DNA of 64,000 bases, taken from NCBI GenBank assembly GCA_902578135.1, contig CACHBU010000001.1:125286-189285 (forward strand). Reading direction: 5' to 3'. A program made the translations under genes and the position numbers. The stretch comes from an uncultured Candidatus Actinomarina sp. (lineage in GTDB: Bacteria; Actinomycetota; Acidimicrobiia; Actinomarinales; Actinomarinaceae). Position 1 is the stretch's first letter; each line of letters starts with the position of its first letter. The notes under the pieces were generated by a model. That model did not search any database. It was not told the origin of the DNA and saw nothing but the letters and a program-made list of their open reading frames with translations. Shown piece by piece: positions 11,087 to 60,784 of the stretch.

Positions 11087-12220
11087 TTATGTAGAGACTA
11101 AGTCAATTAGTTTTTTGTAACCAAACTCGAAATTGGCAACACTTTGGTTTTCTTTAACAAAGTCTTTAGAATTCAATCCTGTTTGTAAAGCACTTTCATA
11201 ATTGTTCATAATGTGTTGAATTTTGTTTGATAAATCATTTTTATTGTTGTTTTCAAATATATAACCAGTTTCATTTTCAATAATTAAATCTACCATTCCG
11301 GTGTTACTTGAAACTAAGACAGGACACGCTGTGGATTGTGCTTCAATTATTACCCTACCTAGTCCTTCAGATTTTGAAGGTAAAATAAATAAATTTGCTG
11401 ATGAATACTTTGAAATTAGTTCTTCAGCTTTGATAAAAGGTGTCGTAGTTATGTTTTCTGCATGCTTAGAACTAGAAATGAGGTTGTTTAATTCTTTTAG
11501 ATATTTTAAATTAGGTGTTTGTCCAATTATTTCCAATGAAACATTCCCATCAATTGTCTCAAGTGACTCAATGATTATCTTTGGATTCTTTCTTTCTGTA
11601 ACACTTCCTACAAATATTATTTTAAAGGTATCTGAGTATGATCTTTTAATATCAGCATTTAGATAATTATCAATATTTATCCATGCAGGGAAACGAACAA
11701 ATAAACCTTGATATCCAAAATTCAAAACTTGTTTTTCCGTAAAGTCGGAAATAGATCTAATTAAATCTGCTTTTTTGATTGAATATTTTGCTAGATAGCT
11801 AAATAGTAAAGTATAAAATTTTGGTAGTAATAAATTTTTTTCTAATCCAATCGTATCGATAAAATCTCCATGAGTTTCGACTACAATTTTTACAGGTAAT
11901 TTTCTAATCTTTAAAGAAAAGATTGTAAAGAAACCAGTAATAGGGTCTTGCAAGCAAACAATATCTATATTTTGTTCTTTTACAATTTTTGGGATTTTGA
12001 AAAAGAATAGAAATATAATTTTAAGATAATTTAAAAACCTATTTTTATTCTTTTTATTAAAAATAGCCTCAACACCTTCAACACTAGAAGTAAACTTTTC
12101 CTCACTGAATGCATAAACTATAGGATTGCAAACATTAGAAAGAGATTGAAATTTTTTTTGAATATCTTTTGTTAAAGGATTGGAGTAAACAGTTGGAGAA
12201 ACAAATAAAACTTTATTCAT
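11087..12220 (-). CDS. glycosyltransferase family 4 (GT-B)
   Basis: EX7E-type motif SKSEGLGRVIIEAQSTACPVLVSSNTG in the C-terminal half; overlaps the upstream hydrolase gene by 8 nt. Confidence 0.75.
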   Translation of the reverse strand: MNKVLFVSPTVYSNPLTKDIQKKFQSLSNVCNPIVYAFSEEKFTSSVEGVEAIFNKKNKNRFLNYLKIIFLFFFKIPKIVKEQNIDIVCLQDPITGFFTIFSLKIRKLPVKIVVETHGDFIDTIGLEKNLLLPKFYTLLFSYLAKYSIKKADLIRSISDFTEKQVLNFGYQGLFVRFPAWINIDNYLNADIKRSYSDTFKIIFVGSVTERKNPKIIIESLETIDGNVSLEIIGQTPNLKYLKELNNLISSSKHAENITTTPFIKAEELISKYSSANLFILPSKSEGLGRVIIEAQSTACPVLVSSNTGMVDLIIENETGYIFENNNKNDLSNKIQHIMNNYESALQTGLNSKDFVKENQSVANFEFGYKKLIDLVST

Positions 12221-13136
12221 TGTTTAAAAAGCTATTAATCTCTTCTAATAGTTCATCTGCGTGAGTCCACGGAACAGAATGACCGGCATCATTAATAACT
12301 TTCGATTTAACAGTATTTAAACGGTTTATGACTTCATTAGATGTTTCTTCAGGGACTAATTTGTCTTTACCACCAGTAATAACCAATGTGTCAGAATGTA
12401 TTTCATGAATCCAAGGTCTTGCATCATAAGGAACAACAAACCTTCCTCCGTCACCATATATAAAGTCATCTTTTGACCTATGTAAATTATTCCATGCCCA
12501 CTCTGTATACTCATCTTCAATAGATTGGGATTTCCTTAAGAAAGAAAATTTTGATTGAGGATTAAAATTTGGAAAAAGTCTTTCTCGAATTCTTACAAAA
12601 CTTATAAATACCTTAAATGCTATTTTGTCACTATAAACAGCGCCCCCCAGCCAACTAAATGGGGTTATTAAAACTAATTTTCTAATCAAGGATTGTTTTT
12701 TTCTAGCAACAGACATCCCAACAGCGCTTCCCATCGACCAACCAACAATGTCACACTCTTCTATGCCAAGTTTTTCTAGAATGCTTATAACCAGATCAGC
12801 ATTTTCGTCTACATCCCATCTTTTCCAACTTGAATCTGACTTCCCATGATTTCTTAAATCAATTGCAATAAATGAATTTTTATTTTTAATTTTTGGCAAT
12901 ACTTTAAACCAACTACCTAATGAATCAGACCCCCAGCTATGTAGAAAAACAATAGGGGTTGTTCCATCTACGTATGATTCTCTAATAAAGTATTCTTTTT
13001 CCCTTACAAAAATAGTTCTGCCAGGAAACTTACTTGGATGAATTTGAGTATTACCAGAAATATCTCCTTTTTTTGTTTCAAGCAAGTTTTTCAAAATTGT
13101 TGCAAAAGCAAAAAATTTAGTAATTGTTTTTATCAT
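12213..13136 (-). CDS. alpha/beta-fold hydrolase
   Basis: HSWGSDSLGSW oxyanion region, GWSMGSAVG nucleophile elbow (GxSxG), C-terminal His. Confidence 0.7.
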   Translation of the reverse strand: MIKTITKFFAFATILKNLLETKKGDISGNTQIHPSKFPGRTIFVREKEYFIRESYVDGTTPIVFLHSWGSDSLGSWFKVLPKIKNKNSFIAIDLRNHGKSDSSWKRWDVDENADLVISILEKLGIEECDIVGWSMGSAVGMSVARKKQSLIRKLVLITPFSWLGGAVYSDKIAFKVFISFVRIRERLFPNFNPQSKFSFLRKSQSIEDEYTEWAWNNLHRSKDDFIYGDGGRFVVPYDARPWIHEIHSDTLVITGGKDKLVPEETSNEVINRLNTVKSKVINDAGHSVPWTHADELLEEINSFLNNE

Positions 13137-14173
13137 TTGCTATTAATGATATTGGCTTTATTTTTATATCTAGAAACAATATCTCCAATTTCCCATATAT
13201 TTAATCCAAGTCTGTCAGATATATCATCTAAATCAATTGAATTATCATTTGGTGCTGAAATTAGTAAACCACCACTTGTTTGAGCATCTGATAAAATTTT
13301 TACAAAAGATTCTTGATCGTCGCTATAAATTATATTTTCTTTAGCTGAATCAAAATTTCTTTTAGACCCAGAAGGATAAACTCCATTATTCAAATATTCT
13401 TTTGCATGTTCAATAACAGGTACATTATCTAAATAAATATTTACTGTCACTTCAGAATCTCCAATCATTTCTATTAAGTGCCCTAATAATCCAAAACCTG
13501 TGACATCTGTTATTGCATTTGCATTTAATTCTTTGGCAGCTTCCAATGCTTTGTCATTCAATGTTGTCATTACTTCAGTTACTTCAGATATTGCTTTTTC
13601 ACTTGCTATATTCTTTTTTATAGCAGAAGAGATGATTCCAGAACCTAAAGGTTTAGTCAAAAAAAGTTTATCGCCTACTTGAAGATTTCTTTTTTTATAA
13701 ATAGCATCATTAATTATTCCTGTTACAGCAAAACCATACTTTGGCTCTTTGTCGTCGATACTGTGTCCTCCAATGATGCTACAACCAGCACTTTGCATGA
13801 TCTCTAAACCGCCTTTTAAAACCTCAGACAATATTTCAAAACTTAAATCTTCTCTTGGCCATGAAACAAGCTGTAAGGAAGATATTGGGGTTCCGCCCAT
13901 TGCATAAATATCAGATAATGCGTTAGCTGCTGCAACTTTTCCCCAATCAAACGGGTTATCTAATATAGGAGTAAAAAAATCTACAGTCTGAACCACTCTG
14001 ATTCCATTACCAATATCAATTACACCTCCATCATCAGGCGAATCTAGACCGACCAATATTTTTGAAGTATCGGAATTATTTTGTTGTTTAAAATGCGTCA
14101 GTACCTGAGCAAGCTCTTTTTGTGAGAGTTTACATGCTCAACCAGCACCATGTGAGTACTCAGTTAATCTCAT
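13133..14173 (-). CDS. selD: selenophosphate synthetase (selenide, water dikinase), Sec-containing; in-frame UGA at 14138-14140 recoded as selenocysteine
   Basis: The ORF track truncates the gene at TTG (MVGLD...). Reading upstream in the same frame gives ATG(14173) MRLTEYSHGAG-TGA-ACKLSQKELAQVL..., which aligns residue-for-residue with E. coli SelD [25 protein letters not shown] (TGA at the Cys17 position). A GGAGG RBS lies 6 nt upstream. Downstream: VQTVDFFTPILDNPFDWGKVAAANALSDIYAMGG and the AIR-synthase-like fold. Confidence 0.85.
14106..14140 (-). promoter_or_regulatory. SECIS-like hairpin beginning at the selD UGA
   Basis: mRNA UGAGCAUGUAAACUCUCACAAAAAGAGCUUGCUCA: a 6-bp outer stem UGAGCA/UGCUCA and a 4-bp inner stem CUCU/AGAG, starting at the UGA codon itself. 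Confidence 0.45.
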
Positions 14174-14184
14174 TCCACCTCCTT

Positions 14185-15000
14185 TTAAGAGCGCTCAATA
14201 TTTACTTCGTTTTTAAAAGTTTCTTGAATTTCATTAATTAAGGGGTGGTGAAAATAGTCTATTTCATTTATTTTAGAAACAGGTATCGCATGTTTTGCGG
14301 TAGATAATACAAAACCACATTGTATAGTTTCTAATTCATCTTCAACTAAACGTCCAATAGATACATCTAATTTTTTTTCTTCTCCAAAGCGAATTAAATA
14401 TTTTCGAGTTATTGAATCTAGGATTCCAAGATCTAGGTCTGGTACGTGTATTTTATCATTCAATATCCACCCAAAAGTCCAAGTAGGACCTTCAAGAATG
14501 ATGTTTTCTCTATTAACTAATAAAGCATCCGTATACCCGTTTAATTCAGCTTGTCTTGTGTGACTTATATTCATTGCGTAAGATGTAGATTTTGTACCAA
14601 CATTGAATACATCTTGCTCAATAAAGTCTCCACCACTCTGCCAGTAGGCTTTTTGAGTTTGTAAAGTAAAATACGCTGGTACATCTATAGGTGGCTGATA
14701 AAAGCAAAATACATTAAATGAATCTTTTTCATTTCTTAAAATTAACGTCCTCACATATCCATTTTGAAAATTTTCTGCCACCAGTAAAATATCTTTTTTT
14801 ATCTTTTCAAAATTTATATCGTCAAAAAATACCTTGGATGCAGATTTTTTGAATCTTTCAATGTGTAAGTCTATTCCAAACGGATAACCTTCGTGAATTC
14901 TGATTGCTTCAAAAATTCCATCGCCTCTCCATACTCCAATATTTTCTACAGGAAGAATGAAATCTTCTTTTTCAACTTGGACCCCATCAATTAAATACAT
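14185..15000 (-). CDS. aminotransferase class IV (branched-chain aa aminotransferase / aminodeoxychorismate lyase-like)
   Basis: 271 aa; GVWRGDGIFEAIRI N-terminal signature of PLP fold-type IV enzymes. Confidence 0.6.
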   Translation of the reverse strand: MYLIDGVQVEKEDFILPVENIGVWRGDGIFEAIRIHEGYPFGIDLHIERFKKSASKVFFDDINFEKIKKDILLVAENFQNGYVRTLILRNEKDSFNVFCFYQPPIDVPAYFTLQTQKAYWQSGGDFIEQDVFNVGTKSTSYAMNISHTRQAELNGYTDALLVNRENIILEGPTWTFGWILNDKIHVPDLDLGILDSITRKYLIRFGEEKKLDVSIGRLVEDELETIQCGFVLSTAKHAIPVSKINEIDYFHHPLINEIQETFKNEVNIERS

Positions 15001-17202: not shown

Positions 17203-17811
17203 TCAAAAATCTTTTTCTTCGTCATAATCAGTTGGACCAAGAAAATTAAAATTAAGTTTTTCAATTTTTACCTCAGATGAAATAAAATAATCAATTAGAT
17301 CAAAATCTTTGTATGCTGATATTTCAAATTCACCAGGGTCATCTTGTGTCAACAATTCTAACTTTGACCAAAATGGACGCGGGACTAAAACTGGAAAACC
17401 CAACTTATATCTATATTGAGGAATTAATATTTTTGAGTTGTCTACTTCATTATTTTCTAGAGCAATGATGACTTCATCCCTTACTTCAGGTTGGTCTCCC
17501 AAAAAAAATACAAGATTTTCTATTTGCTTTTGTTCTTGATAAAAAAATAGAGCTGTTCTAATTGATGAAACTATTCCTTCTTCCCAGTTTTCATTTATTA
17601 AAATATTTGAATTATAAAAATTTATTTTTTCTTCAATAATTTCATTTTCGAACCCCAGAACTACAGTCGATGACTCAAAGTAGGAGTTTACTTTTTCAAT
17701 CACAAGTTCTAGTAATGGTTTGTCTTTAACTTCAGCAAGCTGCTTTGGAAATCCCATTCTTGTTGAGTCACCAGCTGCGAGTATAACTCCTGCATTCATT
17801 CTATGCACCAC
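17203..17811 (-). CDS. MobA-like NTP-transferase (nucleotidyltransferase family)
   Basis: MNAGVILAAGDSTRMGFPKQLAEVKDKPLLE N-terminal NTP_transf_3 signature; the true start is probably the MNAGV Met, a few codons inside the ORF. Confidence 0.6.
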   Translation of the reverse strand: MVHRMNAGVILAAGDSTRMGFPKQLAEVKDKPLLELVIEKVNSYFESSTVVLGFENEIIEEKINFYNSNILINENWEEGIVSSIRTALFFYQEQKQIENLVFFLGDQPEVRDEVIIALENNEVDNSKILIPQYRYKLGFPVLVPRPFWSKLELLTQDDPGEFEISAYKDFDLIDYFISSEVKIEKLNFNFLGPTDYDEEKDF

Positions 17812-21876: not shown

Positions 21877-22077
21877 ATGAGTGGAACATTAACAGCATCA
21901 CAAGTTAAGCCAGGTGTTAGAAGATCAAAAAAATACACCACTGGTAGAGTTTGCGCATTTGAAACTTGTGAGACCGTAATTAGCGTTTATAACAAAAAGA
22001 AATTTTGTTTTCTACATGCTCCTATCTCCTATCCAAGGGTAAGAGGTCATTTGCCAAGAGAACAAGAACCAATTTAA
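21877..22077 (+). CDS. small Cys3His protein, paralog A (unknown function), first gene of dnaK operon
   Basis: 66 aa; RBS AGGAAGG; roughly half of positions identical to the ORF at 46098-46292, with shared blocks GRVC, YNK, CF-HAP, YPRVRG; no terminator before dnaK (27-nt gap). Confidence 0.6.
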   Translation: MSGTLTASQVKPGVRRSKKYTTGRVCAFETCETVISVYNKKKFCFLHAPISYPRVRGHLPREQEPI

Positions 22078-43129: not shown

Positions 43130-43864
43130 CTAATTTATATTTCTTAATATCACATATAAACCAGAAAAAATAGAAAAATAAGTCACTGACGCAGACAGAA
43201 AACTCTGAGAAACTTTAGAAAAAATTAAGCTTGATAGTCTAATTCCTAAAAAAACAAATGGAATATTGATCAATAATAAATAAATGTGATCAATGTAGAT
43301 TCTTCCAGTAAAGGCAAGCAAAGACAAAGTGATTAGTATTCCAATTATAAAAACACTATTTAATGATGGTCTGAATTCGTCTGGATCGGCATCTCGATAC
43401 AGAAGAGCAATTGGAGGGCCTCCTATTGCGGCAATCATTCCAAAAATTCCAGAAAATGTACCTGCAATGAAAGAATTGGTTTTGTTTCTTTTAATTACCC
43501 ATCCAAAAAAAGAAGCTATTCCAGCTAAAAAAACTATTAAACCTACAGAAATAGAAAGATATTTTTCATTTAATATTGATAAAAACAACAAGCCGATTGG
43601 TCCCCCAACAAACCTGCCAGCAACTAAAGGTTTTACTGAACTTAAATCAACTTTATTTCTTTCTCTTATAAATACTCGAATTGCTAATGGTAAACCCAAT
43701 AGTGATAAGAGTTGAGGAACTAACAGTGCTTCAATTTGTACAACTATAGGTGATGCTATAACAGCAAATCCAAATCCTAGTATTCCTTGAACTGATGATC
43801 CTATAAAGATTAATAGAGCAATAAAGATTAATTCAAAAAGGGTTAGGTCAAAAGGTAGACTCAA
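43130..43864 (-). CDS. TSUP/TauE-SafE family membrane transporter
   Basis: 244 aa, 7-8 TM with the internal repeat typical of TauE; TTG start overlapping the selW-like stop (TTGA). Confidence 0.6.
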   Translation of the reverse strand: MSLPFDLTLFELIFIALLIFIGSSVQGILGFGFAVIASPIVVQIEALLVPQLLSLLGLPLAIRVFIRERNKVDLSSVKPLVAGRFVGGPIGLLFLSILNEKYLSISVGLIVFLAGIASFFGWVIKRNKTNSFIAGTFSGIFGMIAAIGGPPIALLYRDADPDEFRPSLNSVFIIGILITLSLLAFTGRIYIDHIYLLLINIPFVFLGIRLSSLIFSKVSQSFLSASVTYFSIFSGLYVILRNIN

Positions 43865-44097
43865 TCAAGCGCTTCTTCTATGAGCTTAAGAATCTCACCG
43901 TCCTCAGTATGTCTACCTAGTTCTTTTTTTGAAAATAATAAATTGTCATCTAGATGGAACTCAAATACTCCTCCACCACTTGGAATTAAATTAATCGAAG
44001 TTACTTTGTTTCCGTAAATTTCTAAGATGTCTTCTATCGTACTAACTGCACGAGGGGTGTAGTTTCAGACTACACAAAACTCTAATTTTATTTCCAT
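43861..44097 (-). CDS. selW: SelW/Rdx-family selenoprotein (CxxU), in-frame UGA at 44065-44067; not in ORF track
   Basis: Minus-strand translation MEIKLEFCVV-U-NYTPRAVSTIEDILEIYGNKVTSINLIPSGGGVFEFHLDDNLLFSKKELGRHTEDGEILKLIEEALD*; a single in-frame TGA at codon 11 inside the diagnostic Rdx CxxU motif; GG-VFE...LLFSKKELG matches the SelW core. Confidence 0.8.
44037..44075 (-). promoter_or_regulatory. candidate SECIS structures for selW-like gene
   Basis: Hairpin GUGUAGU-CUGAA-ACUACAC with the UGA in its loop (44057-44075), then a second hairpin UCGUG-CAGUUAG-UACGA starting ~12 nt after the UGA (44037-44053). Confidence 0.35.
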
Positions 44098-46097: not shown

Positions 46098-46292
46098 ATG
46101 ACAGACGGATTAAAAGCGAGTCAAATAAAGGGCGGAATTAGGCCATCAAAGAGTTTTGACCAGGGCAGAGTGTGCAAAGATGAATCTTGTAGTACTCAAT
46201 TAAGTATTTATAACAAAAGAGATCACTGCTTCAATCATGCTCCTGTGAAATATCCTAGAGTTAGAGGCAGAATTCTACAAGAAACTGCTTAA
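46098..46292 (+). CDS. small Cys3His protein, paralog B (unknown function), upstream of copZ-copA
   Basis: 64 aa; aligns along its full length with paralog A (GRVC, YNK, CF-HAP, YPRVRG blocks). Confidence 0.6.
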   Translation: MTDGLKASQIKGGIRPSKSFDQGRVCKDESCSTQLSIYNKRDHCFNHAPVKYPRVRGRILQETA

Positions 46293-59802: not shown

Positions 59803-60784
59803 ATGAACGATTCGTTTATCTTAAGAGATAGAAAATGGAGAGAACAAAATGAACGCGTAACATTATCAAGTTACGCTACCTTCTCTGGGGATTCACTCGG
59901 AAGAAATCAAGAAGAACCTCAAGATACTTTTAGAACTTGCTTTGAAAGAGATAGAGATAGAATCATTCACTCAAAAACTTTTCGTAGATTAAAACACAAA
60001 ACACAGGTGTTTATCAATCCAGATGGAGATCATTTTATTACAAGAATGACACACACACTGAATGTCACTCAAATTGGAAGATCTATTGCGAAAACATTAG
60101 GTTTTAATCCAGATCTTACTGAAGCAATATGTTTAGGACACGATGTAGGACACTCCCCTTTTGGCCATACAGGTGAAGACGTCTTAAATGAAATACTTGA
60201 CGGAGGCTGGAGTCATTCAGAAAATTCTGTAAAAATGCTTTCTGTTATTGAGCCTTTGAATCTGACTAAAGAAACAATAGATGGTATTAAGAAACATCCG
60301 TGGAAATACGAGGAACCTCCATTTGCACCTGAAGGTATAATATGTAGGTTTTCTGATAGAATTGCTTATTTATCTCATGATGTAGAAGATGCAATCAGAG
60401 CTGGTGTTTTGACTGAGAAAGACATACCGAAAAAAATAATTTCTTCACTGGGTCCTCCAGGAAAAGCCTGGATAAATTCACTAATTTCTGGTGTGTTCAA
60501 AGGTTCCAATGGTGGAGATCTAGGAATGGACCAAGAAATACTAGACATAATGAATGAACTAAGAGAGTTCATGTTTAAAAAATGTATATCTAAGAGAGGA
60601 AACAATGCAACAGAGATCAGATGCAAAAAAAATTGTAGAAGTTCTAGTTGAGTATTTTAAAAATAATCCAGATAAGCTTCCTAGTTCTTATTCACAAGAA
60701 CAATCAGAGATTCAGAATTCTGTAGACTATGTTGCTGGAATGACTGATAGGTTTGCTATTTCAACCTATAACTCTATTCATTAA
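59803..60784 (+). pseudogene. dGTP triphosphohydrolase-like HD-domain protein, disrupted by +1 frameshift in A6 run at 60577-60582
   Basis: The N-terminal 260 aa carry HD motifs (HTLNVTQIGRSIA, GHDVGHSPFGH). Frame 1 stops at 60651 after FMFKKCISK.... Frame 2 continues NVYLREE...VEVLVEYFKNNPDKLP...VDYVAGMTDRFAISTYNSIH*, which is the conserved dGTPase C-terminus. Deleting one A restores FMFKNVYLREE. Confidence 0.7.

Follow-up and report, generated by a model that had tools for sequence, protein, structure and literature searches.

The stretch analysed here, hereafter the window, comprises 64,000 nucleotides (nt) of an uncultured Candidatus Actinomarina sp. (contig CACHBU010000001.1), and the gene under study is selD, which lies on its minus strand and encodes selenophosphate synthetase. 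The ATG of selD (14173..14171) is located 11 nt past the upstream gene, a class-IV aminotransferase ending in TAA (14187..14185), and is preceded by a Shine-Dalgarno core with an extended match, AAGGAGGTG (14184..14176). Between 14200 and 13130, the minus strand reads AAAGGAGGTGGA-ATG AGA TTA ACT GAG TAC TCA CAT GGT GCT GGT TGA GCA TGT AAA CTC..., and its conceptual translation is MRLTEYSHGAG-TGA(14140..14138)-ACKLSQKELAQVL, a protein of 346 amino acids (aa) with selenocysteine (Sec, U) at codon 12. The open reading frame (ORF) found mechanically (13133..14056) starts at a TTG (MVGLD...) 117 nt downstream of the ATG. A preliminary description of the locus had claimed that this ORF omits the catalytic N-terminus and that an in-frame ATG, 117 nt further 5' and 11 nt after the stop of the upstream gene, follows a GGAGG ribosome-binding site; the frame and the coordinates were confirmed. 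Its span for the gene, 13133-14179, holds for the gene and its start, but the end at 14179 falls within the ribosome-binding site and the coding sequence ends at 14173. The stop TGA of selD (13135..13133) overlaps the ATG of a downstream alpha/beta hydrolase gene (ATGA, 13133-13136), with a TAA next. Within one selD mRNA, TGA would be read as Sec at codon 12 and as stop at codon 347.

For homology searches, Cys was placed at residue 12 of SelD. The full-length protein matched TIGR00476 with 377.2 bits (cutoff 125), an alignment that the preliminary description had asked for, and NF002098 with 352 bits (cutoff 299), and the AIR-synthase-like N and C domains (PF00586 and PF02769) are present on near-identical database SelD proteins. 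SelD aligned residue by residue to E. coli SelD (PDB 3u0o, E 2.5e-80), with HGAG-U12-AC-K15 falling on HGAG-C17-GC-K20. The model score and the catalytic loop with Cys/Sec17 and Lys20 assign the protein to the selenophosphate synthetases (TIGR00476, EC 2.7.9.3). Two further proposals made earlier are borne out by these alignments, namely that the N-terminal extension is homologous to E. coli SelD (the TIGR00476 match begins at profile position 1, and the 3u0o alignment covers it) and that the TGA occupies the Cys17-equivalent position (codon 12 lies on Cys17 of 3u0o). The catalytic position of SelD requires a Cys or Sec nucleophile. We consider the selD of this Candidatus Actinomarina to be a Sec-decoded gene for a Sec-type selenophosphate synthetase with a probability of about 0.9.

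Standard ORF finding gives another result, in which the TGA is a real stop and the product starts at TTG 14056 or another downstream start, as an N-terminally truncated protein, or the gene is a pseudogene. The N-terminal catalytic motif is likewise missing in 118 of the 150 nearest SelD cluster representatives. Such shortness is consistent with gene callers having widely cut Sec-type SelD short, an expected artefact of calling Sec genes under code 11. A truncated SelD, moreover, would be without the catalytic loop with Sec/Cys and Lys, and the 39 codons upstream of the TTG are in frame, follow a strong Shine-Dalgarno sequence and match SelD from the first profile position. Actinomarina SelD is fairly isolated, none of the 150 representatives exceeding about 60% identity.

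A scan of species-representative genomes yielded seven Candidatus Actinomarina / OCS155 loci from single-cell genomes and metagenome-assembled genomes (MAGs), with SelD proteins 87-99% identical to that of the window and the same flanking gene order. The TGA at codon 12 is kept in all eight genomes (the window and the seven), and the ATG and the N-terminus are shared by 7/7. Gene-wide, 47% of the third codon positions are variable across the eight genomes, and the differences in codons 1-28 are synonymous only, which argues for translation of the N-terminal extension and for purifying selection acting on it. As in a Sec-type SelD, the UGA at the position of Cys17 is thus conserved, and the codons to either side of it are under purifying selection. 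In the protein database, the best 120 matches, distinct variants 96-99% identical to SelD, are all listed as 347 aa with W at position 12, nearly all with an extra C-terminal W, indicating that the Sec TGA and the real stop TGA were both read under genetic code 4. The TGA is therefore present in 120/120 of the metagenome variants listed, which come from independent projects, and no Cys form of SelD was seen among the eight genomes and the 120 listed variants. Considering that the TGA and its context are retained in 128 independent sequences and that codons 1-28 vary only synonymously, a true stop at this position is exceedingly improbable. Code-4 mistranslation of SelD recurs systematically on short low-GC contigs of marine origin, and the SelD relative P0250 is another code-4 gene call.

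The same conservation bears on a sequencing or assembly error, which the preliminary description had named as a refuter of recoding and in which the true codon would be TGC or TGT in an ordinary Cys-type SelD. The assembly is not error-free, as a likely homopolymer frameshift elsewhere in the window (A8, 60624-60631) indicates, and a preprint of April 2026, 'Actinomarina, resolved', assumes that about half of the genomes have Cys forms (bioRxiv 10.64898/2026.04.03.716425). However, the same substitution error would not arise again and again, and the TGA is found in single-cell genomes, in MAGs and in at least 120 metagenome contigs of independent projects, with no Cys form among them. Its presence in seven other genomes and in 120/120 variants listed effectively rules out this explanation, the chance of which we rate as next to negligible.

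Analysis of the Sec machinery gave results that in part weigh against Sec decoding. With ARAGORN and Rfam, tRNA-Arg and three tRNA-Ser but no tRNA-Sec were found in the 64-kb window, no ORF of the window is SelA- or SelB-like, and the reachable same-species 10-kb flanks (to -9.2 kb on the left side, with short contigs on the right) contain no tRNA-Sec, selA or selB. The neighbours of selD are the same in 7/7 genomes and include no sel genes. The gene for tRNA-Sec, selC, was seen solely in relatives that are about 76-77% identical at the DNA level. These were reached by a leftward walk along contigs bearing a homologue of the M1 peptidase whose gene lies ahead of the cox operon: five related Actinomarina contigs (one has a length of 1.14 Mb) share the gene order of the window and carry at a syntenic site a tRNA-Sec with anticodon TCA (ARAGORN), which scored 70.8-75.4 bits against Rfam RF01852 (gathering score 47) in the three contigs scanned. 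The site is located 3.1 kb upstream of the M1 peptidase, corresponding to about 11 kb past the left end of the window and about 25 kb from selD. The tRNA-Sec is flanked by a hypothetical gene adjoining ctaA and by a small ORF ahead of hflX, and its sequence is nearly identical across three lineages. In Supplementary Table 8 of the preprint, selC and selD are 0.021-0.025 genome fractions (about 25 kb) apart; selA, selC and selD are reported in 84/84 complete Actinomarina genomes, together with a selB that is present but divergent, below the KofamScan threshold, and no YbbB (bioRxiv 10.64898/2026.04.03.716425). The earlier expectation that Sec machinery is encoded elsewhere in the genome is thus supported in part, by the tRNA-Sec at the syntenic site of related contigs and by a second selenoprotein gene in the window, and for selA and selB by the preprint.

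This second gene, an uncalled SelW-like/Rdx gene for a protein of 78 aa, came to light when the gaps between genes were translated with U for TGA; an in-frame-TGA screen of the long ORFs of the window had returned selD alone. The protein begins MEIKLEFCVVU..., with the Sec in a CxxU motif, and matches PF10262 (Rdx, SelW/SelT family) over its whole length with 58.8 bits (cutoff 22.6). The gene ends in a TGA (43863..43861), and its 3' end shares 4 nt (TTGA) with a TauE/SafE transporter gene (43130..43864) that starts at a TTG. An identical protein with the TGA is encoded in 10 further contigs and is called as a gene in none of them. The 10 orthologous contigs are nearly identical (6 variable sites) and thus uninformative for covariation. 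The 'uncharacterized 78-aa' top family of the preprint is probably this SelW-like/Rdx protein, as its length and abundance suggest, and the overlap with the TauE/SafE gene may explain the 'K07090' grouping in the preprint.

A further explanation is that the UGA is read by a route other than Sec, either by a suppressor or near-cognate tRNA (Trp, Cys) or through a lineage-wide reassignment (code 4 or 25). Such reading would agree with the code-4 gene calls on short low-GC contigs, which give uninterrupted 347-aa proteins, and non-Sec readthrough is known for the UGA of Hymenoptera SPS1 (PMC4561486). In the window, however, TGA terminates 10 of the 59 long ORFs, several of them in ATGA overlaps and selD itself included, so that TGA is an ordinary stop here and global reassignment is excluded. 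The position calls for a Cys or Sec nucleophile according to established knowledge of SelD, congeners possess a dedicated tRNA-Sec, the second gene has its UGA exactly at the CxxU redox motif, and the RNA downstream of the selD UGA is structurally constrained, as described below. Decoding by a non-Sec route is therefore very unlikely.

Comparison of the eight genomes revealed that nucleotide conservation is concentrated around the UGA. The longest invariant codon run in selD is codons 18-28, every 53-nt segment with at most three variable sites is located at the TGA, and only 3 of the 19 third positions of codons 12-30 are variable, compared with the gene-wide 47% (binomial P about 0.005). Because folding of the single sequence was uninformative, pairs were counted explicitly on other Sec-type SelD genes, collected with the degenerate DNA pattern YSHGAG-TGA-xCK, from which the Actinomarina codon choice was excluded. 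Of the resulting 120 loci, most come from high-GC soil sequences; they carry the motif UACKLGxxELAQVLRH and share 44-55% identity with the window protein. A second group has the gamma-proteobacterial motif and a classical long hairpin. A gap-free alignment (A2) of 53 distinct UACKL-type sequences served for the comparison, which drew on 50 other Sec-type SelD genes; its columns are numbered from the U of the UGA.

Analysis of A2 suggested two hairpins, H1 and H2, the tested structure pairing columns 12-17 with 23-28 in H1 and columns 31-36 with 40-45 in H2, around a loop of G37, U38 and N39. The combined structure is 85% paired in the 53 sequences, compared with 26-46% when the partners are slid, and its covariation score is 0.212, compared with at most 0.092 for slid partners; 0/500 shuffles attain the observed values, and two-sided changes occur at 7 pairs. 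H1 is 86.5% paired, and its pair 12-28 covaries between two synonymous sites, combining Lys AAG with Leu CUG 30 times and AAA with UUG 14 times. H2 lies within the invariant run of codons 18-28. Its helix is 80-84% paired with a covariation of 0.217 and has -5.3 kcal/mol in Actinomarina; its pair 33-43 is found as G-C, U-A and C-G, and the loop nucleotides G37 and U38 are conserved in at least 90% of the sequences. At the site where Sec-type proteins keep Q-V (CAG GUN), Cys-type SelD representatives have variable residues, x-[IVLM], suggesting that the H2 loop is constrained as RNA and not by a need of the protein. In Actinomarina, H1 and H2 together have -7.2 kcal/mol, the minimum free energy (MFE) for the RNA that follows column 12. 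A bacterial Sec insertion sequence (SECIS) is expected as a stem-loop about 16-37 nt downstream of the UGA, and H1 (columns 13-27) and the H2 loop (columns 37-39) are found in this region.

A competing fold involves the UGA itself. The MFE fold of the naked RNA joins columns 0-6, which include the UGA, to columns 30-36 (-9.4 kcal/mol), forming an alternative lower stem that occupies the 5' arm of H2. The comparative support for this lower stem is below that for H2 (76.6% vs 80.3% paired, covariation 0.117 vs 0.217), and it is broken in one subclade that retains a longer H2.

Several observations count against the structural model. The single-sequence fold (MFE -10 kcal/mol, z -0.73) is no better than that of shuffles, and RNAalifold found no consensus structure on the 53 sequences. 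With -7.2 kcal/mol for H1 and H2 together, the hairpins of this AT-rich genome are weak. There is almost no variation within Actinomarina, so that the covariation comes from distant high-GC relatives, about one-fifth of which do not form H2 in the tested register. The competing lower stem has some comparative support too, and the conserved GU of H2 doubles as a Val codon.

In the proposed decoding mechanism, translation begins at ATG 14173, and SelB, recruited by an RNA structure within about 45 nt 3' of the UGA, would deliver Sec-tRNA(Sec) to decode the UGA at codon 12. In the N-terminal glycine-rich loop HGAG-U-ACK, Sec would stand where E. coli SelD has its catalytic Cys17. As long as no ribosome has arrived, the UGA region may instead pair with the 5' arm of H2; this lower stem must open when the ribosome is on the UGA, which would make H1 and H2 the fold available at decoding. 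We propose that H2 acts as the SelB-binding hairpin and H1 as a looped-out spacer, since a folded H1 would leave about 10 single-stranded nt from the UGA to H2, near the 11-nt spacing in E. coli. As SelD supplies the selenium donor for Sec synthesis, a Sec-type SelD depends on its own product, and positive feedback of this kind is known for other Sec-type SelDs.

A more elaborate version, in which this actinobacterial SelD clade has a bipartite recoding element with a built-in switch and not a single SECIS hairpin, appears doubtful to us. According to it, free mRNA would hold the UGA sequestered in the lower stem with nucleotides 30-36, the ribosome would melt this stem, nucleotides 30-36 would refold as an fdhF-like H2, and the looped-out H1 would place H2 at the right distance from the UGA. 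If true, the switch could couple SelD synthesis to the availability of ribosomes and SelB, and hence to selenium supply, in a bacterium that ranks among the most abundant in the surface ocean.

For comparison, the fdhF SECIS of E. coli was taken from the MG1655 genome (...GCAGGUCUGC...), where G23 and U24 were confirmed and the layout is the UGA, 11 nt and then the minimal element GGUUGCAGGUCUGCACC. In fdhF, G23 and U24 contact SelB. The tip of H2 in Actinomarina selD, CAG-GU(A)-CUG, resembles fdhF GCA-GGUC-UGC (fdhF A21 G22 G23 U24); the H2 region reads GCGCAGGUC(C/U)UGCGC in the high-GC relatives and CUCAGGUACUGA in Actinomarina. H2 thus has the apical G-U, whereas the H1 loop of Actinomarina, CACAAAA, is without G or U, unlike fdhF. 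The position also differs, in that H2 begins 26-27 nt past the UGA (column 30-31) with H1 in between. The candidate hairpin of the SelW-like gene, by comparison, spans nucleotides 15-31 exactly as the fdhF minimal SECIS does, with the 11-nt spacer.

Sec-type SelD/SPS2 was reportedly first described by Guimaraes et al. in 1996, in Haemophilus influenzae, Methanococcus jannaschii and mammals. Actinomarina SelD resembles this type in the UGA at the Cys17 position, the SECIS just downstream within the coding sequence and the dependence on its own product. There is no difference in kind; from the gamma-proteobacterial forms it differs in having U-A-C-K instead of U-G-C-K and two short hairpins instead of one long hairpin. 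A survey of 223 reference genomes put the Sec-encoding share at 19% of the prokaryotic SelD genes found, with Sec invariably at the Cys17 position, and Sec-type SelD genes carry a bacterial SECIS inside the coding sequence (PMC4561486). The Sec-type selD of Actinomarina, a member of a well-known SelD type, is itself already known: the preprint reports the MRLT* selD family (342-346 aa, K01008) as a selenoprotein, along with about five selenoproteins per Actinomarina genome (bioRxiv 10.64898/2026.04.03.716425). There, Rfam models yielded no SECIS and the Sec form was suggested for about half of the genomes, whereas here a covariation-supported two-hairpin model was obtained and the TGA is present in 8/8 genomes and in 120/120 listed variants. 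The additions beyond the preprint are minor and consist of the SECIS model, the TGA in all sequences examined, the probable identity of the 78-aa family and the code-4 artefact. The coordinates of the features are collected in Table 1.

Table 1. Positions of the selD and SelW-like features in the window, and of tRNA-Sec in related contigs (numbered within each contig)
Feature	Position	Strand	Basis or remark
Full-length selD, for a selenophosphate synthetase of 346 aa with Sec as residue 12	13133..14173	minus	TIGR00476 and 3u0o matches
Sec codon TGA, codon 12, equivalent to E. coli Cys17	14138..14140	minus	3u0o alignment, conservation
Shine-Dalgarno core GGAGG	14178..14182	minus	4 nt ahead of ATG; invariant across the Actinomarina alignment
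Hairpin H1, CUCU[CACAAAA]AGAG	14114..14128	minus	columns 13-27; begins 9 nt past the UGA
Hairpin H2, UGCUCAG[GUA]CUGA(C)GCA	14094..14111	minus	columns 30-47, C14097 bulged; putative SelB-binding element
Alternative lower stem, 5' arm UUGAGCA including the UGA	14135..14141	minus	pairs with 14105..14111, competes with H2
Uncalled SelW-like/Rdx gene, 78 aa, CVVU motif	43861..44097	minus	PF10262; Sec TGA 44067..44065
Candidate SECIS of the SelW-like gene, UCGUGC[AGUUA]GUACGA	44037..44053	minus	columns 15-31, -6.6 kcal/mol
tRNA-Sec in related contigs	L154 6856-6948; L155 6838-6930; L157/L158/L159 6851-6943		ARAGORN

The current understanding of Sec decoding is unchanged by these results. Their practical consequence concerns annotation: standard gene callers truncate this selD and miss the 78-aa SelW-like gene, and code-4 calls on short contigs have left the databases with hundreds of erroneous SelD entries that show Trp at the catalytic position. 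An extremely streamlined (about 1.1 Mb) and very abundant marine photoheterotroph appears to invest in a full Sec system in which the selenium-activating enzyme is itself Sec-dependent, and Actinomarina may explain part of the long-known dominance of SelW-like proteins and SelD among the selenoproteins of ocean metagenomes.

Other features of the window were noted in passing. A selenoneine (sen) cluster, in which a SenC-type SelD stands beside SenB, was considered and rejected, as the neighbouring glycosyltransferase at 11087..12220 scored 36 bits against TIGR04348 (cutoff 300). A MocA/YgfJ-like nucleotidyltransferase (17203-17811, minus strand) lies 3 kb from selD, with 102 bits against TIGR03310, below the cutoff of 186; it might conceivably be linked to a selenium-dependent molybdenum cofactor trait. 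A pair of short paralogous ORFs, each of about 65 aa (21877-22077 and 46098-46292, both on the plus strand), located upstream of dnaK and of copZ/copA, respectively, share GRVCxxExCxTxxSxYNKxxxCFxHAPxxYPRVRG, a Cys/His-rich, zinc-ribbon-like motif, and have no Pfam match. A dGTPase-like HD-domain gene (59803-60781, plus strand) is split by the frameshift at the A8 run (60624..60631), with the HD domain in one frame to 60651 and HD_assoc in the +2 frame to 60781; the frameshift may be genuine or may reflect an assembly error in the homopolymer.

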